Source: a virus
Virus genome (UHGV): UHGV-0351052
Direction: 5' to 3' (one strand)
Length of the DNA stretch: 64,000 bases
Shown: positions 13,189 to 50,352 of the stretch, piece by piece
How positions within the stretch are numbered: position 1 is the first letter of the stretch
Layout: every line of letters begins with the position of its first letter
Notes under the pieces: model-generated
What the model saw: the letters and a program-made list of their open reading frames with translations, nothing else
The model's database searches: none
Told to the model about the DNA's origin: nothing
Position numbers and translations under genes: made by a program

Positions 13189-16100
13189 ATGGCTACTTTA
13201 AAACAAATACAATTTAAAAGAAGCAAAACTGCAGGTCAACTTCCTGCTGCTTCAGTATTAGCCGAAGGTGAATTGGCTATTAATTTAAAAGATAAAACAA
13301 TTTTCACAAAAGATGACTCAGGCAATGTTATAGAATTAGGTTTAAAATATGGAGGAACAATTGATGGTTCTTTAACTGTTAATGGAAATATAATTGGAAA
13401 TTTAACAGGTAACGCTGCAACTGCAACGAAATTAAAAACAGCACGAAAAATTAATGGTATATCCTTTGATGGGTCAAAGGATATCACGCTAACTCCATCT
13501 GACATAAATGTCAATAGCACAACATTTATAAAAAATAATGGCGAATTACCTGTTGATGCTAATTTAGATGAGTATGGGCCTGTTGAAGAATATCTTGGAG
13601 TTTGGTCGAAAGCAACTTCAACCAACGCTCAACCAGCAAATAAATTTCCAGAACAAAATGCTGTAGGTGTGCTAGAAGTATTTGTGGCCGGTCAATTTGC
13701 TGGTACTCAGAGATATACAACTAGATACGGAAATGTTTATATTCGTTCCTTGACTGCTACATGGAACGGAGTAAATGGTCCGTGGAGTGTGTGGCGAAAT
13801 ATTCAATCCGGTACTCGTTCACTGTCAACAACAATTGATCTTAATGATCTAGGAGGCGCTGAACACTTGGGTTTGTGGCGAAATAGTTCAAATTCCATTG
13901 CTACCTTTGACAGAAATTTCCCAGAAGAAGGATCGTCAGCTCAAGGACTTTTAGAAGTATATGAAGGTGGAAACTATTCTCGCACACAGAGATATACGAC
14001 CAGATTTGGTGTTGTTTATACTCGCTGTCTTACTGCTGCGTGGGATGCTTCTGCGCCTAAATGGGGACCGTGGCAACAAGTCGGTAATGTCACACCAGCG
14101 ACTTTTTATGATGGAGATCTGAATGATTTTAAAACTCCTGGGTTATATAATATTTTAGGCACTGATGCCGTTATTAACTGTCCTACAGGTGAAGGTTTGC
14201 CGACTGTTATTGTTGGTTTGCTGGAAGTTAAACAGCGTGCTTCTGGCGGTGCTATTTTCCAAAAATTTACTACTGCCGGAACGGGTTCAACTACTCGCGA
14301 TCGTATTTTTGAGCGCGCATATACCGGCGGTGTTTGGGGTACATGGAACGAAGTATACACATCCTATTCTCTACCAATTACTTTGGGTATGGGCGGTATT
14401 AAATCTAACTTAGCTGAGTTAGACTGGCAAACCTTTGATTTTGTCCCTGGTAGTATGTTTAGTGTTCCTTTGAACAAAATAAAGAATATGCCAGCAAATA
14501 TGGATTGGGGTACGATTGACGGAAACTTGGTTATGTTTTCTGTCGGTCCTAGCGAACACACTAGCACAGGGCGTACTGTTCAGGTTTGGCGTGGTACTGT
14601 ATCCCAGACAAACTACCGTTATTTTGTCGTTCGTGTGTTCGGTAATTCTGGAAATAGAACTTGTACAGTTCGACGCGTTGTTCTTGAAGATGGTCGCCAC
14701 AAATGGACAGCGCAACAAGATTTTAATGGTGCAGTTAACTTCGGTGCTCCTACCAATTTTAACTCTACTGTTAACCTTAATAACACTACCACATTTAAAA
14801 CAGAAGTTAAATTCCGCTCATTGAATGCATTTAAAATGTATGGTGGTAATTTTGGTACAATTTTCCGTAATGATGGTGAAAGTCTTTATATTCTTTCCAC
14901 CAACGAAAATGATCAAGATGGAAACTTTAACACCAATAGACCTTTCCGGTATCAGTTTAGAACTGGTGATGTTACTTTGGGTGGAACTAGTGGTGCTAAT
15001 ATTTTAAGATTAAAAAGTAGTTCTCTTGCTGCTACCTTTGGTGGTGATGTTAACTTAAGTAAAGGTACATTGACGTTTGAGGCGGGTGGTAAGCAATCAC
15101 GAGATTACTTCCGGTTTAACCATTGGGGTGATAGCAATAACGCTCGTGATAACATTATTCAGTTAGAAGACAGCAAAGGCGCTCATTTTTCCACTGAACG
15201 TACTTTAGCGACAGGTGCAATTAAAACTCGTTTCTTTGGCGAAACATTCACTGATGGTACATTATACCTAAATCAGATGAATAATAGCTCTGAACGATTC
15301 TCTATCAACAATTGGGGAAATTCAGAAGCTGGACGCGCGGCAGTATTGGAAGTCGGCGATTCCAAAGGTTATCACTTCTATACGGAACGCAGGACAGATA
15401 ACAGTTTGATGTTTGATGTTGCTGGCGCTTTTACTGTGCATGGACCTTCCGGGATTACTATCAAAAACTCAGCTGGCGCACGCCATATCTGGTTTAGAGA
15501 TGATAGCGATGCAGAAAAGGCTGTTATCTGGGCTACAGATGATGGTCTTTTACATATACGAAATAATAATGGGGGTTCATTTAGTCATCACTTCCAGGGT
15601 GCAATGATTAAAGTGGGAGAGCGTGTTCCTTATGCCGGAGATCGAGGGCTTATTCGCGGTGAAGTTTCTGGTGGTGCTTATGTGGATTGGAGAGGCCGCC
15701 CTGCTGGTTTGTTGCTTGACTGTCAACAAAGCGTTAATAGTGCTCATGCTATTTGGAAAGCGGTTGATTGGGGGCGTAACTACATCGCTGCTCTGGACGT
15801 TCATTGTCCCGGCGATAGTAATAATACTGCAGCAGCGGTTCTCCATGTTCAGTCTGCTGATTATCAATTCCATGCAAATGGGAGCTTTGATGCCAGTGGC
15901 AACGGAAACTTTAACGATGTTTATATTCGATCAGACCGTCGCCTTAAAGACAATATAGAAGATTATACCGGAAATGCGTTAAGTTTGATTGGTAAACTGA
16001 AAGTGAAAACTTACGATAAAGTTAAATCTCTTAAGGACCGTGAAATTATCGGTCATGAGATCGGCATTATCGCACAGGATTTACAAGAAATATTACCAGA

Positions 16101-16284
16101 AGCGATTAATATTTCGAAAATTGGCAATCTTGATAAACCAGACGAAGTTCTGACAATTTCTAACTCTGCTGTGAATGCTCTTTTAATTAAGGCCATTCAG
16201 GAAATGAGTGAAGAAATTAAAGAATTGAAAACGCCTTTCTTCACTAAAATTGCTCGCAAAATTGGTAAATATTTTAAATTCTAA
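13189..16284 (+). CDS. 37: long tail fibre distal subunit gp37 (1031 aa), T2-type with C-terminal self-cleaving chaperone domain
   Basis: N-terminus [13 protein letters not shown] conserved with T4 gp37; remainder diverges and lacks the T4 His-rich needle tip. Confidence 0.85.
15931..16281 (+). other. intramolecular chaperone / autoproteolytic domain at gp37 C-terminus (about 117 aa)
   Basis: Begins [12 protein letters not shown]..., the S-D-x-R-x-K-x-N-I signature of peptidase S74-type domains; T2 gp37 is known to lose about 120 C-terminal residues. Confidence 0.55.
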
Positions 16285-16290
16285 CAACAA

Positions 16291-16309
16291 GGGGGAAATT
16301 TCCCCCTTT
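16291..16309 (+). terminator. hairpin GGGGGAAATTTCCCCC plus TTT after gene 37
   Basis: Perfect 6-bp GC-rich stem then a short T-run; probably a weak or attenuating terminator. Confidence 0.35.
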
Positions 16310-16321
16310 GGAGTATAAATT

Positions 16322-17104
16322 ATGGCAGTAGTTGGAGTTCCTGGCTGGATTGGAAGTTCAGCCGTAAATGAAACGGGACAGCGCTGGATGAGTCAAGCGG
16401 CTGGTCAACTAAGATTGGGTGTTCCTTGCTGGATGAGTCAATTTTCAGGTCGCTCGCGAGAAATTATTCATACACTTGGCGCAGACCATAACTTCAATGG
16501 TCAATGGTTCCGTGATAGATGCTTTGAGGCGGGTAGTACACCTATAGTGTTTAATATTACAGGTGATTTAGTATCATATTCTAAAGATGTTCCTTTATTC
16601 TTCATGTACGGGGATACACCTAATGAATATGTTCAGTTAAATATACACGGCGTAACGATGTATGGTCGTGGTGGTAATGGCGGTAGCAATGGTCCTGGCT
16701 CATCTGGTGGTCATTGTATTCAAAATGATATTGGTGGAAGACTAAGAATTAATAATGGAGGTGCTATCGCAGGCGGTGGCGGTGGTGGCGGTGGTGGGTA
16801 TTATTCTCCCACGAAACCAATGAAATTAACCTTTGGTGGTGGTGGCGGTCGTCCGTTTGGTGCTGCTGGTGGATCTGCCAACATGCAATCAGGCGCAACT
16901 GCTGGTACTCTTTATGCGCCTGGCGCAGGGTCTGTAAACGGTGTCTATAGCGGCGGTGGCGGTGGTGAGGTAGGCGCCGCAGGAGGTAGATGCAATATTC
17001 GCGGTCAAGGATCTGAATATAATGGCGGCGCTGCTGGTTATGCTGTCATAGGGTCCGCTCCAACATGGCAAAATGTTGGAGCAATATATGGTCCAAGAGT
17101 ATAA
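16322..17104 (+). CDS. 38: receptor-recognising adhesin gp38, T2/T6 type (260 aa, glycine-rich motifs)
   Basis: Poly-Gly motifs ([54 protein letters not shown]) separated by variable segments; T4 gp38 is a 183-aa non-Gly-rich chaperone. Confidence 0.75.
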
Positions 17105-26060: not shown

Positions 26061-28238
26061 TTAGGCCGCAAGGGCCTTCATAGTTTTAGCGATTTGGGAA
26101 ACTTCATCATCACTTAAAGAGCTGCGATAACCGATGAAGTCAGAAACAATACGGAATTTCTTGGTAAACTCAGCAACCATTTTATCACTGTTTTTTGAAG
26201 CATTATTTGATAATACATCAAAAAGATTAGTTACTGTCCAGATGTCATGACCGATGGTATCTCTTCCACCATTAAAATATACACCCTGTAATGAACTAAC
26301 CATATTAGCAAGTCGTGTATATTCTTCAGAAACTTCATCTACACTGAAGTACTTCATCATAAAATCTAACTCAGGATACTTGATAATTTTATCAATATAT
26401 CGTTTAGCTGAACTTGAATAACCTACATACTTATCATAATCTACATCATCAAAAGCATCTACATATAAATCACGCAAAGCTTCAAAAATACATTGGCACT
26501 GACCGAGTTCTTTTATCTTTTTCTGCAAAAGCGGACGAATAACATAAAATTCATTAATGCCAATAAGATTAGCCATACGAATCAAAATATTCATAGATGG
26601 ATGACAAAGAGATGTAGTACCATCCATAGAGAAAATATCAGAACGATGCATATACGCTACATAACCAGTAATTTCATCTGCTTCTGATGTGAGCGTAAAT
26701 AATTCCTCTTTTTCCCAGCGCCCGTCTTTAATTTCAAACTTAAATGCTGTAGCAGCTTTAGGACGAGGAGCTTTACTTTTAACTACCTTTGGAATATAGC
26801 TTTTAACTAAAGCTTCAATTTCTGACAAATAATGAATGTTAACTTCATCACTTTCAAACATCGCCATAATATCAGGGAGTAAATCAATTTGCGATTCTAC
26901 TTCTGGATTAATAAACAGAAGGCGTTCGTTGTGATGAATATTCAAAGTGTTATTAAATTCACTATCATCTAACGCATGTGCTAATCCACGGACAATATTA
27001 ACACGATTTTTAATATTATCAATAACGATATTAATTTTTGTTGTATTAATACCAAACAGACGATAGCTTGATGCAACGGCTGAAGTTTCATGACTTTGCT
27101 TAATGCGCTTCAGTCGAGGGTCAAGATTTACTTCATACACAACCCCTGCATTACATAACTTACTGTCAGGTTCAAACATGCTCTGCATCTTTTTATATGA
27201 CAGATTTTTAGTCGTGAATTTGACTGAATTACTAATCATATAATCTCGAGCAGAATACCCCATCTTCATCAATTCACGATATGTGTGACGAGGAGATGTA
27301 GATTCTTTAAATCGTTTTACATCTTCATTAAATGCTTTCTCACTAAGCTCTTTAACTCGTTCAATAATATTTTTACGAGTACGATCATCCAGTGAAAGAG
27401 CCTCGCGAGATGGAGCAATATCAAGTGAACCCATTGGAAACTTAATGTAATTCACTTCATTGCGAATGCTTAGCCAGTTACGATCTCTAATAACACCATC
27501 GATAGGATAAACAATACCGCCATAGATAGCATATAATCCACCACGATCAGGCCAGTATCTTTCTGGATTTACGCCATAATAATCATCAAAATCCGGAAAA
27601 TAATCAATTTCGCGGTCAAGACCATTAATGATAGCCAAATCTTTGAATGGTCGCATGATATAAGAAACTTCATAAGCAAAGTTTCTAAAGTCTTTTTCTT
27701 CAACTGGAACTACGATTTCAATACCAGTTTTATCATCTGGACCCATTTCTTTTACGAATGTAGGTTTAATCTGTGGACCATCACCATCCATGTAAGCTAC
27801 ATAACCACGAATTTCACCTTTATGATACGAAGTAATACTAAACGTATCAGTATAACTAAATGGAGATTTAGAACCTAAACCAAATCCGCCAATGAAATCG
27901 TTAGATTCAGCCTTAGATGAACTGAAGTATGAATTATACAGACCAGGAGAATTATCATCACCCTGAATATCAAAATCACTCATACCCGGACCAAAATCTC
28001 GACAAACAAATCGCGGGTCTAAACGTCCTGGAACTTGTATGATAAATTTTTCAGGATTTCCATTGAGAGCATGGGCATCAATCATGTTAGTAATCAATTC
28101 ACGGACTACTGCGCGAATCTTGTTTGTATACAAATCAGATGACAGAATTTTAAATACTTTAGGAGATGCAGTAATACTAAATGCTTTTGATTTAGAACCA
28201 TTACCAAGAATTGTTTCTTTTTCAGTGGTGATAATCAT
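26061..28238 (-). CDS. rIIA: rIIA protein (725 aa)
   Basis: Length equals T4 rIIA; N-terminal ATPase-like region. Confidence 0.9.
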
Positions 28239-28248
28239 AATTTCCTCA

Positions 28249-28452
28249 TTAATTCATATTACGCTTAATAACTTCAGCAACTTCTAGTAGCTCATCTTTA
28301 GTTGCGGTGTCGGATTGAATTTTATCTCTAATATCTTTAAAGCGGTTTTTAAATTCTTCGGCTTCTCCCATATCGAAAAAGCGTTGAATGATTCTATATT
28401 CTCGATGAACTGCTTTATCAAAAAGTTCTAAATTTACTTTATATGATTTCAT
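28249..28452 (-). CDS. hypothetical protein (67 aa; rIIA.1 position)
   Basis: ORF track. Confidence 0.5.
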
Positions 28453-28509
28453 TTCAATATCCTCATTTGCCCAATTAATTATACCACATCCTTGTGGTAA
28501 AGTAAACTA

Positions 28510-28851
28510 CTGACTCATCCATTCTTTACGAAGGTCAGCATTATCTCCCATGAGCATTTCAAAAAGCTCTTTCCAGTTCTCAGGAAGTTTAACAACATCA
28601 TATACTGGATTTTGAATCATCTCACGATATTCAGATTTTTCCAAAGAGCCAAGTCCTTTAATATAACGGATGCTATGTTTAGGTAGAGCATCTTTGGCAC
28701 TCTCATATTCAGCGACTGTATAAAACCATTCTTGTTTTTTACCGACCTGAGCGATGATTACAGGAGTTTTGACAAAGCGAATTCGTCCTTGCTCAAACAA
28801 TTCTGGCCAATTACTAAAAAACCCGAGCAGAGAAGGATAAATAGAACCTAA
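28510..28851 (-). CDS. 60: topoisomerase II subunit gp60, segment 2 (codons 47-160, resumes at UUA after the bypass)
   Basis: Translation LGSIYPSLLGFFSNWPELFEQGRIRFVK...RKEWMSQ continues T4 gp60; the ORF-track start here is an in-frame TTG. Confidence 0.85.
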
Positions 28852-28901
28852 TCCAATAATCTCTTAATTATGAGGTATTTCTATAGATAGCCCGAAGGCT
28901 A
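28852..28901 (-). promoter_or_regulatory. gene 60 translational bypass element (50-nt coding gap)
   Basis: Take-off GGA (28902-28904), UAG stop (28899-28901), hairpin GAUAGCC-UUCG-GGCUAUC, landing GGA (28852-28854). Confidence 0.8.
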
Positions 28902-29039
28902 TCCATCGTGATCTGCGTCTGTCATAATAGCGACATTCGCATAGTTCATTGAAGAGGATTTAATAGAACGACGAACATTGTTCTGCAATTTATATTTTTT
29001 CATATCAACGCTAGAAGAATCAATTTTTACAAATTTCAT
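28902..29039 (-). CDS. 60: topoisomerase II subunit gp60, segment 1 (codons 1-46)
   Basis: MKFVKIDSSSVDMKKYKLQNNVRRSIKSSSMNYANVAIMTDADHDG then UAG, identical to remembered T4 gp60 N-terminus. Confidence 0.85.
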
Positions 29040-29838
29040 TATACACCTCATAGAACTTTTCATCAGGAATCCAACCGCGTTTAAATTCATTAAATGCTCG
29101 GCCGAATAATTTTGAATTCACAGTTATATTATTAACTGATTTCCATTTAGCAACTCCCGTTCGTTTATAATGATCGGGGTCATATTTCGTGACGTACCAT
29201 TCATATAAATTTGGTATTAATTTTACAGCCTCTGGATTTGTCGCTGATTTATTATACCATGGTTTCGCTTTTTCAAGTTCAGCTGCTTTTGCAGTAGCAG
29301 CAACAGTATTTCCAATACCAACTAATTTTTCAGCTTTAATGCGTGGATCATTAACATGAAGACGAAAAACTTCGCCTTTTTCATTTTTAAAGCATGTCAT
29401 GCCTTTAATTCCAGGAAGCTTAACACCTTTATTAACACCGCACCATTCCTTTGGGTTAAATGATCCTTTAATTAATAAGGCGCATTTACCCGATTTAATA
29501 CTTCTCATTAAAACTTTATCTTTCATAAAGTTTTTTGACCATTCAGATACTGCTCTTTGATGGTAAATTCTAGCAATTTCATATAATTTACTAGAACGTA
29601 AATATTTTTCAGTGTTTAACATTCTATTCATCGCATATGCCATTTCACGATTACGATGAATTTTATATAGTAGAAAATGTGCTAAAAAGTGTTCACGAAA
29701 AGTCAGTTTCACCAAATTTTCTTTATCATCAGAACCTCCCATTGATCTTGGAAGGATATGATGAATTTCACCCTTAAATTTAGAAACGCGGGTTTTACCC
29801 CGCACTATTAAGTCATTATAGATTTTTTCGTAATTCAC
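29020..29838 (-). CDS. mobA: HNH homing endonuclease MobA (272 aa)
   Basis: HNH motif EIHHILPRSMGGSDDKENLVKLTFREHFLAH; located between 39 and 60 as in T4. Confidence 0.8.
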   Translation of the reverse strand: MNYEKIYNDLIVRGKTRVSKFKGEIHHILPRSMGGSDDKENLVKLTFREHFLAHFLLYKIHRNREMAYAMNRMLNTEKYLRSSKLYEIARIYHQRAVSEWSKNFMKDKVLMRSIKSGKCALLIKGSFNPKEWCGVNKGVKLPGIKGMTCFKNEKGEVFRLHVNDPRIKAEKLVGIGNTVAATAKAAELEKAKPWYNKSATNPEAVKLIPNLYEWYVTKYDPDHYKRTGVAKWKSVNNITVNSKLFGRAFNEFKRGWIPDEKFYEVYNEICKN

Positions 29839-31366
29839 CTACTGTTATCCATTTACCATTAATCTGTACCTCATCATTTTCATTTACGATAATTGTATCG
29901 CCATTTAGTTCGAAAGTAAACCACTCGCCATCTTCTTTTTCTTCAAACGCCTTTTCACCAAGAACTAGACCAGTGATTGCGCAAATATCAAATAGTTCTT
30001 TGTTTTTAAGCATATCTGCATAAGACATACCCCAACTGTTGAGAACTTTACCACGCAATGGATAACCACCATGAAGTTCTTTATCGCGAACATCAATAAG
30101 ATATCCGATAGCAGAATCACCCTCAGTCAAGAAAAGAGTAGTATCAGCATCTTTACCACAAAGGTTCGCTTTGATATGTTTATGAACCTTAGCTTTAGAA
30201 GCCTTTTTAGCTGCTTTAGTTTCTGCTGCTTTTTCTGCCGCCAATTTACGAGCTAATGCTGCTTCAATGATTGGCATCAGAATTGCTTCATTATTTAGAA
30301 TAGCACGTGAAATCTTTTTAGCGTCAAGTTGAATATGACTACGAATTTCGCCAAATGGAGAAGTCAAACGCTCTTTAGTCTGAGAATCAAATCGCATGTT
30401 TTTCATATCACGAACAAACATAACGATAGTCAAACATTCTTTGACACGTGCTTTAGTCACATCAATTTTGAACTTACGTTTGATTTGTGGAATAAGGTCT
30501 TCACAAATATCATCCATAACACAGTCAATGTGATGGCCACCATTCTTAGTATGAATGTTATTAACGTATGTTAATTGACGAAAACCATCCGGTGAACGAC
30601 CAACTGCAATAGAACAATTTTCTTGTTCTTGAACAATAGCATGCTCATCATATTGGCGTGCATATTTCTTAAAATTGCCCTGAACCTTTTTACCATTAAA
30701 GGTAAATTGAATATCAGGATAAACTACTGCAAGTGTCTGGAGACGATCTAGTGTAATGTCAAGATAAACTTGGGACAGCTCATTAGTTTCAAATGACATA
30801 AAATCAGGAATGAAAGTAACACGAGTTCCTTTCCATTTTCCAGGAATATCTTCCCATGATTTATTTTCCATGCCATTTGAACAACGAACTACAATATTAT
30901 TTTGACCATCGCCAGTTTCACCAACAAACATCACAGAAAAAATGTTTGTCAAACTAGAACCAACACCATTCATACCGCCAGTGACGCGTTCTTTATCATC
31001 ACCAAAGTTACCACCTGCTTTTGGAATAGTCCAGGCAGCAACAGGACCAGGAATTTCTTCACCGGTAGGTGTTTTAACCATCGCTTGTGGAATACCGCGA
31101 CCGTTATCTTCAACTGTTACTTGATTGTTTTTAATAGTAACATTAATTTTATTTGCGAATTTAAACTTAGTACGAATACCTTCATCTACTGAGTTATCGA
31201 TAATTTCATCAATAAGCTTAACAAGACCAGGTACATACTGAACACTTTCCCATTTACCAAACAGAAAGCGCTCATGCATTTCATTAGCGGAAGAGCCAAT
31301 GTACATGCCGCTACGCTTTTTGATATGTTCAATATCGCTCAGAATTTTAATTTCATTCTTAATCAT
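29816..31366 (-). CDS. 39: DNA topoisomerase II large subunit gp39 (516 aa; ATG at 31366)
   Basis: GyrB-type ATPase; ORF-track first codon is GTG, ATG follows a GAGGA ribosome site. Confidence 0.9.
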   Translation of the reverse strand: MIKNEIKILSDIEHIKKRSGMYIGSSANEMHERFLFGKWESVQYVPGLVKLIDEIIDNSVDEGIRTKFKFANKINVTIKNNQVTVEDNGRGIPQAMVKTPTGEEIPGPVAAWTIPKAGGNFGDDKERVTGGMNGVGSSLTNIFSVMFVGETGDGQNNIVVRCSNGMENKSWEDIPGKWKGTRVTFIPDFMSFETNELSQVYLDITLDRLQTLAVVYPDIQFTFNGKKVQGNFKKYARQYDEHAIVQEQENCSIAVGRSPDGFRQLTYVNNIHTKNGGHHIDCVMDDICEDLIPQIKRKFKIDVTKARVKECLTIVMFVRDMKNMRFDSQTKERLTSPFGEIRSHIQLDAKKISRAILNNEAILMPIIEAALARKLAAEKAAETKAAKKASKAKVHKHIKANLCGKDADTTLFLTEGDSAIGYLIDVRDKELHGGYPLRGKVLNSWGMSYADMLKNKELFDICAITGLVLGEKAFEEKEDGEWFTFELNGDTIIVNENDEVQINGKWITVGELRKNL

Positions 31367-44989: not shown

Positions 44990-45616
44990 TTAACCTCTAT
45001 TCATAAAAGCATTAAAAATTTGGTCATCAATAGAAACATTTACTTTAGACTGTTTTTCAGATGGCAATTCATATCCACATATTACAATTTTATGATCAAT
45101 ATCAAAATACACAGAAGCAATATGATTAATGATGTTTTCAGTAAAGTCTAAATCAACATCAATATCTTTTTGACCACAGCCCAAAGGATAAATAATGCGA
45201 GTAATTCGATTATCTTTAACAAATATTCCACCGACATACTCTGTGCTGCGTTTAAAGTCTACACGCCGACGAAATGAAAAATATTCAGGCTCTTTATGAG
45301 CTCGGCTCATAGGGCACAACGAATAACTAGAATAAGAGATGTCAAATCCTACGCCTTCAATATGAACTAAATTGTCATGATTAAACCAATTATAATCATA
45401 TGCCAAGTCCATTAGATTGTCATATGTAAAAGGCACCGGATTAACATCATTGGTCACAAGCATATAATTAGCAACTGCTATAATTTCATTATTTTTAACG
45501 AATACAAACCGTGATTGATGCGAATGACCTGGACCTGCGTTTTCACGATTAATGATATAACACTGGGCACCTTTATATTTGTACGTGTCTTTACACTTGT
45601 GCATTTGATAAAGCAT
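44990..45616 (-). CDS. hypothetical protein (208 aa; 61.2 position)
   Basis: ORF track. Confidence 0.5.
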   Translation of the reverse strand: MLYQMHKCKDTYKYKGAQCYIINRENAGPGHSHQSRFVFVKNNEIIAVANYMLVTNDVNPVPFTYDNLMDLAYDYNWFNHDNLVHIEGVGFDISYSSYSLCPMSRAHKEPEYFSFRRRVDFKRSTEYVGGIFVKDNRITRIIYPLGCGQKDIDVDLDFTENIINHIASVYFDIDHKIVICGYELPSEKQSKVNVSIDDQIFNAFMNRG

Positions 45617-49503: not shown

Positions 49504-50352
49504 TTAATCAACTGCTATTGGATGAATAGCATTAAACTTATGAAATGCTTCTGATTTTTCTTTACGCGAAACACACATGCGAAGAACCTTTAATGGCTCG
49601 TCTTCTTCACCCAACGATTTTCGTTTTTCAATATTCGATGTTTTCCAACGAGCTTGCTCTGGAAACTCTCTATTGATTTGCTCAAGCGCTCTATTATGTT
49701 TAGAATTACTACGAATTGAACTACACCCACCGGGAGCGTGTGATTTTCCAGATACAACTAGATATTTGAACAAGGCCAAATGCGGATAACCTTGATTAAT
49801 TAAATTGAGAAATGCATACATATCTTCGCATAAATCAATTTTTCCATACCCAATTTGTTCTGTCGTAAGTTTTCCGAGGTCATACCATGTATTCGTGAAT
49901 CCATATGAGTTTTCACGATAATTACCCCAAGATGAAGTAATTTTAAAAATTGGTAGACGAGCATGACCGTGATAATACCCGCAATCCATGGCATCCTCAA
50001 CGTATTGAATCAATTCATAGAACTGTTCACGAGTTAATTGATTAATTTTATCTACGCGCCGTTTATCGTCTCTCTTTCGTATTGAACTCATACGAATAGT
50101 AGTATCATCATCAATCATCCAGATTCGTTGACCTGCATACATATCAGTAATTGCTTTACGAGTACCGGCAATTCCGTTTACATCATCAGGAATAGTTACA
50201 ATTTTAGCTCTAGACCCATAAGCATCATAATAAGCTTTTTCTTCGTGTTCACGCACTACAATATGGGGCTCATAATCAGTCGGAAACATATTAAGGGCAG
50301 AAACTGCCCCTACACGCTGATAACTTGGAATTACGAATTGAATCATTTCCAC
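49504..50352 (-). CDS. putative GT-A type glycosyltransferase (282 aa) at the beta-gt locus
   Basis: Lies between uvsX and 42, where T4 encodes beta-gt (351 aa); carries a DXD-type motif (RIWMIDDDTTI) and is unlike T4 beta-gt. Confidence 0.5.
   Translation of the reverse strand: MEMIQFVIPSYQRVGAVSALNMFPTDYEPHIVVREHEEKAYYDAYGSRAKIVTIPDDVNGIAGTRKAITDMYAGQRIWMIDDDTTIRMSSIRKRDDKRRVDKINQLTREQFYELIQYVEDAMDCGYYHGHARLPIFKITSSWGNYRENSYGFTNTWYDLGKLTTEQIGYGKIDLCEDMYAFLNLINQGYPHLALFKYLVVSGKSHAPGGCSSIRSNSKHNRALEQINREFPEQARWKTSNIEKRKSLGEEDEPLKVLRMCVSRKEKSEAFHKFNAIHPIAVD

Follow-up and report, generated by a model that had tools for sequence, protein, structure and literature searches.

A T4-type ("clade 1") MobA mobile element, complete with a 50-nt translational bypass cassette, almost certainly resides in the phage topoisomerase II (Topo II) large-subunit gene of the virus genome UHGV-0351052 (we put the probability of this assignment at about 0.96). 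The window analyzed here is a 64,000-nt stretch of that genome. The element, 1106 nt in length, splits the Topo II gene into genes 39 and 60, and encodes the endonuclease MobA, extensions on both gene halves, and the bypass cassette itself. Programmed recoding has its classic extreme case in the gene 60 hop. All core cis signals in the window are identical to those of T4, which makes the T4 mechanism the most likely one, and no sequence evidence speaking against the identification of a bypass cassette within a MobA element was seen. From the identity to the T4 cis signals, we infer that gp60 is produced as a single polypeptide by bypassing, as has been shown experimentally in T4; that bypassing actually takes place here, its efficiency, and the activity of MobA would follow by the same analogy.

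Anatomy of the bypass cassette and of the MobA element

The genes around the gene 60 locus are all located on the minus strand of the window (Table 1). Gene 60 starts with the ATG at 29039, with a Shine-Dalgarno sequence, GAGG, 6 nt upstream. The gap that interrupts its reading frame contains stop codons in all three frames and has a length of 2 modulo 3; the only GGA within it is the landing codon. The locus thereby shows the matched codons of a T4 gene 60-type bypass, namely, GGA at take-off and GGA at landing, read by the same tRNA, with a non-coding gap between them. The earlier note on this DNA had described the gap at 28852-28901 with its take-off GGA, UAG, UUCG hairpin, and landing GGA, and this description proved exact, for the minus strand. 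The resumption with LGSIYPSL proposed there was borne out as well: the frame restarts at 28851 as LGSIYPSLLGFF, which is the +2 frame, and runs to the stop at 28507. The 46-codon leader contains the residues Y16, Q19, V22, R24, Y33, and T40, as expected of the nascent-peptide signal.

Table 1 Features of the 39-mobA-60 locus and of the distal tail-fiber module in the window
Feature	Position	Strand	Description
Gene 60 segment 1	28902..29039	-	46 codons, MKFVKIDSSSVDMKKYKLQNNVRRSIKSSSMNYANVAIMTDADHDG; ends in the take-off codon; carries the nascent-peptide bypass signal
Take-off codon GGA (Gly46)	28902..28904	-	
UAG stop directly after the take-off GGA	28899..28901	-	Kept in 8/8 sequences, 4 genera
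Coding gap, exactly 50 nt	28852..28901	-	UAGCCUUCGGGCUAUCUAUAGAAAUACCUCAUAAUUAAGAGAUUAUUGGA
Take-off stem-loop	28883..28906	-	10-bp stem; the 5' arm includes the take-off codon
Shine-Dalgarno-like GAG	28861..28863	-	6 nt 5' of the landing codon; surrounding tract 81% A+U
Landing codon GGA	28852..28854	-	
Gene 60 segment 2	28507..28851	-	114 codons plus stop; begins LGSIYPSLLGFFSNWPELFEQGRIRF
Predicted 5' stem-loop	28909..28948	-	Upstream of the take-off hairpin; sequence and predicted fold same as in T4
Predicted 3' stem-loop ("forward slippage barrier")	28783..28837	-	Parental sequence
Gene 39, Topo II large subunit N-terminal part	29816..31366	-	516 aa; Pfam HATPase_c, DNA_gyraseB
mobA, intact HNH-family homing endonuclease	29020..29838	-	272 codons, GTG start; between 39 and 60
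MobA mobile element	28843..29948	-	1106 nt; C-terminal extension coding sequence, mobA, gp60 N-terminal extension, bypass cassette, 9 recoded nt (TTAGGTTCT)
Distal tail-fiber module	13189-17104	+	gp37, 1031 aa, with C-terminal Peptidase_S74 intramolecular-chaperone domain; gp38, adhesin type

The take-off hairpin has the sequence AUGGAUAGCC-UUCG-GGCUAUCUAU, with a CC-UUCG-GG tip in which the UUCG tetraloop caps the stem at 28896-28893, and folds at -14.7 kcal/mol when a 28-nt piece is analyzed. Folding of the 76-nt stretch as a whole yielded a z-score of only -2.06; the fold signal sits in the discrete 10-bp hairpin rather than in the whole gap. The window has one copy of the 19-nt take-off motif, versus 0 expected (100 shuffles); together with the 266-nt match to T4 and the identity of the gap and of gp60, this shows that the cassette is not a chance occurrence. 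A scan of positions 28000-30000 on both strands against Rfam (E ≤ 1) produced neither a family nor an intron-like RNA; Rfam holds no family for the element, so that this search provides no independent covariance-model confirmation. ARAGORN found no tRNA genes in the window (1-64000), and any phage tRNA-Gly relevant to the decoding of GGA would be encoded elsewhere in the genome.

The likeness to T4 extends well beyond the cassette. Over 3161 nt, from rIIA.1 through 60 and mobA to 39, the window is colinear with T4 records, the identity being ~98.5%, and the gene order rIIA - rIIA.1 - 60 - mobA - 39 is the same, in agreement with the earlier note, which had called this the T4 arrangement. When the region was aligned with T4 gene 60, the match spanned 266 nt at 99.6% identity (E = 4e-132), and the gap was identical in 50 of 50 positions to that of T4T (HM137666), in which this very stretch bears the annotation "non-coding translational bypass region". 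The GGA/GGA pair, the UAG, the UUCG hairpin, the GAG mini-Shine-Dalgarno, and the 46-codon leader are all identical as well: segment 1 of gene 60 differs from T4T at 0 of 138 nt, and the joined gp60, 160 aa long, is identical at 160/160 residues. Gene 39 carries 38 substitutions over 1551 nt, which translate into 3 amino acid differences. The reading frame of mobA is intact, as it is in T4T, whereas the T4 reference, NC_000866, annotates mobA as defective, split into a fragment and 60.1. Apart from the host backbone, which here is not T4, the cassette region differs from T4 by one synonymous change past the landing site, A to G at 28822 (Gly56, GGA to GGG), located 30 nt past the landing codon within the predicted 3' stem-loop. 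The G at this position is absent from all of the six other cassette-bearing phages compared and is found in the cassette-less phage YUEEL01. The predicted 3' stem-loop folds at -11.2 kcal/mol here versus -14.1 kcal/mol in T4 (~2.9 kcal/mol weaker, by fold prediction only), so that the efficiency of bypass could differ slightly from that in T4, and this private change might naturally alter it. The 5' and 3' auxiliary stem-loops are described as T4-specific and not conserved between clades, and the need for them has been doubted; a role for the 5' stem-loop in T4 has also been reported (bioRxiv 10.1101/2022.08.31.505936).

Comparison with uninterrupted homologs demonstrates what is restored when the two segments are joined. 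The cassette-less phages RB6 and YUEEL01 encode gene 39 as a single gene of 605 aa. The joined gp60 aligns with residues 472-605 of RB6 gp39 without gaps and at 96% identity, the hop junction DADHDG-LGSIYPS matches the uninterrupted protein exactly (within IMTDADHDG-LGSIYPSLL), and the joined protein is continuous with the full-length Topo II profile PHROG 543. Segment 2 contains the Pfam TOPRIM_C domain and matches PHROG 7229 at 2.4e-81. Immediately after landing, the element has the codons TTA GGT TCT where the parental gene has TTA GGA AGC, both encoding LGS; this synonymous recoding implies that these codons are under protein-level selection, which counts against both downstream initiation and a pseudogene.

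The same comparison delimits the element. Residues 1-473 of gp39 are parental, being 100% identical to the fused RB6 gp39, and residues 474-516 form a novel, element-encoded 43-aa tail, the C-terminal extension (CTE). Alignment with the fused genes of RB6 and YUEEL01 indicates that the element replaces 64 nt of the uninterrupted gene 39, with the 5' break after nt 1418 of gene 39 and the 3' break 9 nt past the landing codon. The boundaries were determined by prefix/suffix scoring, given that MAFFT misplaces the 3' junction of the insertion. A 5' boundary at 1415 was considered and dropped, the apparent break being a single flank mismatch at 29951. The element adds the 43-aa CTE and a 46-aa N-terminal extension (NTE), and is inserted at the canonical site: MobA elements are reported at nt ~1399-1419 of the Topo2L gene, have lengths of 1097-1106 nt, replace 55-75 nt, and encode a CTE of ~44 aa and an NTE of 44-46 aa (bioRxiv 10.1101/2022.08.31.505936). 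For clade 1, the T4-like one, Manning & Atkins 2022 (bioRxiv 10.1101/2022.08.31.505936) give a length of 1097-1106 nt, a 64-nt deletion in the HY01 example, a CTE of ~43 aa, an NTE of 46 aa, and 9 extra nt after the bypass. The size, the 64-nt replacement, the CTE and NTE, and the 9 recoded nt of the window copy are all the same as in the clade 1 elements of Tequatrovirus; also shared are the out-of-frame overlaps of mobA with both neighboring ORFs and the near-identity of the element among carriers with diverging flanks. We found no structural difference in the window copy; a single private change, synonymous, was seen at 29870 in the CTE, and the copy in phage e11/2 is 1 nt away.

An HNH endonuclease gene, mobA, had been proposed in the earlier note to sit at 29020-29838 between genes 39 and 60, and indeed an intact ORF is found there. 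It shares 20 nt with the end of gene 39, ahead of the stop of the latter, and 20 nt with the start of gene 60. The product matches PHROG 655, "homing endonuclease", at 2.5e-57, and its Pfam HNH match (residues 24-43) scores 20.1 bits, marginally under the cut-off of 21.4; the PHROG assignment is decisive for the identity of MobA despite this sub-cut-off score. The length of the ORF is within the 269-279 aa range of the MobA mobile elements, and there is one amino acid difference from T4T (A169 versus T). The record of e11/2 labels mobA as MobE.

Alternative readings of the split gene

Three other readings of the locus have to be weighed, and all are far less probable than a bypass cassette carried by a MobA element. 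Under the first of these, there is no bypass: a 46-aa peptide ends at the UAG, the C-terminal part is independently initiated, and the topoisomerase is assembled from at least three pieces. An ORF of 97 aa with a TTG start does exist at 28800..28507, and several annotators call separate downstream coding sequences. Moreover, in T4, about half of the ribosomes indeed terminate at codon 46, and the overall efficiency of bypass is ~50% (bioRxiv 10.1101/2022.08.31.505936). However, the 17 codons between the landing codon and this TTG (LGSIYPSLLGFFSNWPE) encode a sequence identical to that of the uninterrupted protein and are synonymously recoded, which indicates that they are translated, and there is no AUG in the downstream frame between the landing codon and the TTG at 28800. 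Independent initiation also offers no reason why synonymous take-off and landing pairs would be kept in four genera despite codon changes. Finally, a single landing product has been identified in T4 by mass spectrometry, according to the same source (bioRxiv 10.1101/2022.08.31.505936). We accordingly consider this reading highly improbable.

Even less credit can be given to the possibility that gene 60 is a pseudogene, or that the UAG and the 50 nt arose through a mistake in sequencing or assembly, with no functional gp60 made from the locus. A naive reading of the DNA does yield a 46-codon ORF ending at a stop, and many database annotations fragment gene 60 or apply the label "frameshift". 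Against this, the identical 50 nt recur in as many as 53 phage records that are independent of one another, the two coding segments match T4 at 100% on the protein level, the downstream segment is conserved as protein with synonymous differences, and the architecture is kept in the diverged versions from three other genera. By this conservation, the notion of a pseudogene or an error is effectively refuted. T-even phages carry self-splicing group I introns, with homing endonucleases, elsewhere in the genome, and on that precedent one might envisage that a small intron, or an RNA processing event, takes the 50 nt out of the mRNA before it is translated, but introns of group I and group II are far longer than 50 nt, the Rfam scan described above gave no match on either strand at E ≤ 1, and the endonuclease gene lies outside the 50 nt, so this option is as negligible as the preceding one. 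Readthrough or simple frameshifting across the gap was considered too, and is ruled out by the stops in all three frames.

Genome background and mobility of the element

The window derives from a Tequatrovirus other than T4; the best 25-kb matches (PD112, JEP6, HY03, and others) are ~95-96% identical. For the replication module, the nearest relatives are PD112, CE1, JEP6, and HY03, all of which carry the cassette. A different set of relatives emerges for the distal tail fibers: the best match is the Shigella phage SHFML-26, at 93.6%, with SF2-1 and the RB3 group also among the nearest, and the best match being just 93.6% identical, the receptor-binding module is not identical to that of any phage listed. 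The fiber relatives that were checked at the 39/60 locus (SF2-1, RB6 of the RB3 group, and YUEEL01) lack the cassette. The combination of fiber relatives without and replication-module relatives with the cassette justifies the term mosaic that had been applied to this genome. The accompanying description of the fibers as T2-type requires a qualification. The fibers belong to the gp38-adhesin class and are not of the T4 type: gp38 (260 aa) matches the Pfam GP38 adhesin family at 6e-72 and has no similarity to T4 gp38 (E = 1.7), which itself matched no Pfam family, and gp37 resembles T4 gp37 over the first ~66 residues only. The T4 RefSeq note places the adhesin-type gp38 in a "T2 subfamily"; the fibers in the window are, however, not those of T2 itself, as is apparent from the match to SHFML-26. 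Mosaicism of fiber modules and homing endonucleases is the norm in T-even phages and comes as no surprise.

Two further genes of the window deserve mention. The 282-aa ORF at 49504-50352 on the minus strand matches PHROG 842, "beta-glucosyl-HMC-alpha-glucosyltransferase" (2e-88), and Pfam TAGT; we take it to be the T2/T6-type second glucosyltransferase, not the T4 beta-gt, in which case it would be another non-T4 module. The 208-aa ORF at 44990-45616, also on the minus strand, matches the Pfam family AdfA (anti-DarT factor A) over the full length at 1.5e-136 and is an anti-defense gene.

The element is conserved in excess of its surroundings. Compared to T4T, it contains 4 mismatches in 1106 nt, against 40 in 1754 nt of the flanks (Fisher p = 1.4e-5). 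At third codon positions, 1 of 273 differs in mobA versus 33 of 472 in gene 39 (p = 4e-6), a contrast showing that protein-level constraint does not explain the conservation of the element. Among seven cassette-bearing Tequatroviruses, pairwise diversity averages 0.76% within the element, as against 3.6% in the flank to its left and 2.1% in that to its right; segregating sites occupy 20 of 1106, 125 of 1418, and 17 of 336 positions, respectively (p = 3e-14). Examination of the closest copy reveals the same pattern on a finer scale: across the element, the window and e11/2 are a single nucleotide apart, the left flanks differ at 48 of 1418 positions, and the identity between the two extends beyond the element ends for only 68 nt on the left and 20 nt on the right. 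The element is carried by 42 of the 842 matching phage records in one search and by 53 of 803 in another; RB6 and YUEEL01, with their fused gene, are 97-99% identical to the window in the flanks. The excess conservation of the element over the flanks, as observed in these comparisons, is consistent with a lateral spread through homing. Some of the difference in diversity could instead stem from the extra constraint imposed by the overlapping ORFs and the RNA signals, and not from recent spread; of the 1106 nt, just a small fraction is taken up by these overlaps.

One may further ask whether this copy results from a separate, recent homing of MobA into an adhesin-fiber, non-T4 Tequatrovirus backbone, with very short co-conversion tracts. 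We regard this scenario as doubtful, and if true, it would contribute at most one data point on tract lengths and one natural variant for use in bypass assays.

Diverged versions of the cassette were collected by a sensitive search with the 266-nt region in other genera of Straboviridae, and several of these were aligned. The window and T4 have GGA as both take-off and landing codon and a gap of 50 nt. The Proteus phages (Bragavirus: SJ_PmiM and Pm5461) have GGG and GGA with a gap of 51 nt; the S16 group (Gelderlandvirus: Salmonella phages S16 and SEA1, and Escherichia phage UoN_LG358_1), GGU and GGC with a gap of 48 nt; and the Acinetobacter phages (Lazarusvirus: fHyAci03 and phi1_092060), GAU and GAC with a gap of 43 nt and the take-off one codon upstream. 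All groups keep the UAG, the CC-UUCG-GG tip, a stem of 10-11 bp, and a synonymous take-off/landing pair, and the changes in the stem are compensatory; in particular, the stem pair that includes the third base of the take-off codon covaries: T4 and the window have A-U, the Proteus phages G-C, and the S16 group U-A. The three other genera share with T4 the insertion site, a leader of 44-46 codons, the UAG after take-off, and take-off and landing codons that are read by one tRNA; in most of these phages, the endonuclease gene is located upstream. The residues Y16, Q19, V22, R24, Y33, and T40, reported earlier as conserved in the leader (bioRxiv 10.1101/2022.08.31.505936), are all present in the Proteus phages, and in the S16 group and the Acinetobacter phages, whose leaders are shorter, they stand at the aligned positions. 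The idea that these diverged cassettes had not been reported was dropped, the same clades, codon pairs, and covariation being described in bioRxiv 10.1101/2022.08.31.505936.

Several of these cassettes have peculiarities of their own. In the Proteus phages, the reading frames on the two sides of the gap are in phase and the UAG is the sole in-frame stop; readthrough of this UAG in SJ_PmiM and Pm5461 would yield a protein longer by 17 aa, an alternative to bypassing. Salmonella phage SEA1 (OQ927978.1, 2671-3002) has a split gene in which 48 nt, the cassette GGT UAG ... GGC, separate the two topoisomerase halves, with no endonuclease gene; endonuclease loss of this kind is mentioned in general terms in the survey (bioRxiv 10.1101/2022.08.31.505936). 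In Salmonella phage GRNsp7 (ON720975.1, ~217), a T4-like cassette contains an extra T between GAGA and TTATTGGA, extending the gap to 51 nt; this T would put the downstream frame in phase, and may represent either natural variation or a sequencing error in a homopolymer. The T4-like phages themselves fall mainly into two gap haplotypes: CUAUAG, the T4 type, is that of the window, and HY01, JEP6, and pSe_SNUABM_01 have CCAUUG along with V11I and L18S in the leader; the G50 gap, CCAUAG, is intermediate.

Outside the phages, the closest parallel considered is the mitochondrial "byp" of Magnusiomyces capitatus, which likewise involves programmed bypass with matched take-off and landing codons. The byp inserts are 27-55 nt long and are reported to behave as mobile elements (bioRxiv 10.1101/2022.08.31.505936). 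They differ from the phage cassette in belonging to another lineage and translation system, in being present in many copies per genome, in having an unassigned sense codon in the A site versus a stop, and in that no associated HNH endonuclease has been reported.

Proposed mechanism and significance

Should the T4 mechanism operate in this phage, the following sequence of events would be expected (sources on mechanism and homing: bioRxiv 10.1101/2022.08.31.505936, PMC5462505, PMC6551183). The ribosome would translate 46 codons, with the nascent peptide, including KKYKLQNNVRRSIKSSS, contacting the exit tunnel, and would stall with peptidyl-tRNA-Gly on GGA and the UAG in the A site. The UUCG-capped hairpin would then form at the A site, and the tRNA would unpair from the mRNA while staying in the ribosome, which would slide over ~50 nt without decoding, in an EF-G-dependent manner. 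The GAG located 6 nt upstream of the second GGA would pair with 16S rRNA, the tRNA would re-pair at that GGA, and decoding would resume at UUA, giving a single gp60 of 160 aa that reads DHDG-LGSIYP across the junction. In the DNA itself, the 50-nt insert would disrupt the MobA target and thus shield the carrier genome from its own nuclease, and MobA would cut the cassette-less gene 39 of co-infecting relatives, so that the element is copied into them. Nicking of the cassette-less gene 39 by MobA and protection by the insert have been reported for T4 and T2 (Bonocora et al. 2011 PNAS 108:16351, as cited in bioRxiv 10.1101/2022.08.31.505936).

The window thus holds one more copy of an element that is known and well characterized, and, all core signals being identical to those of T4, it adds nothing mechanistically new. 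In related records, gene 60 is annotated inconsistently and often appears as two or three coding sequences, under names such as "hypothetical protein", "frameshift", or "DNA topoisomerase small subunit", and few of these records join the segments. Recognition of the hop matters mostly for annotation, where gene 60 should be given as one joined coding sequence. Beyond that, this copy illustrates the passage of the MobA/bypass element, as one unit, from one T-even backbone to another, the flanking topoisomerase sequence having diverged several-fold more than the element itself.
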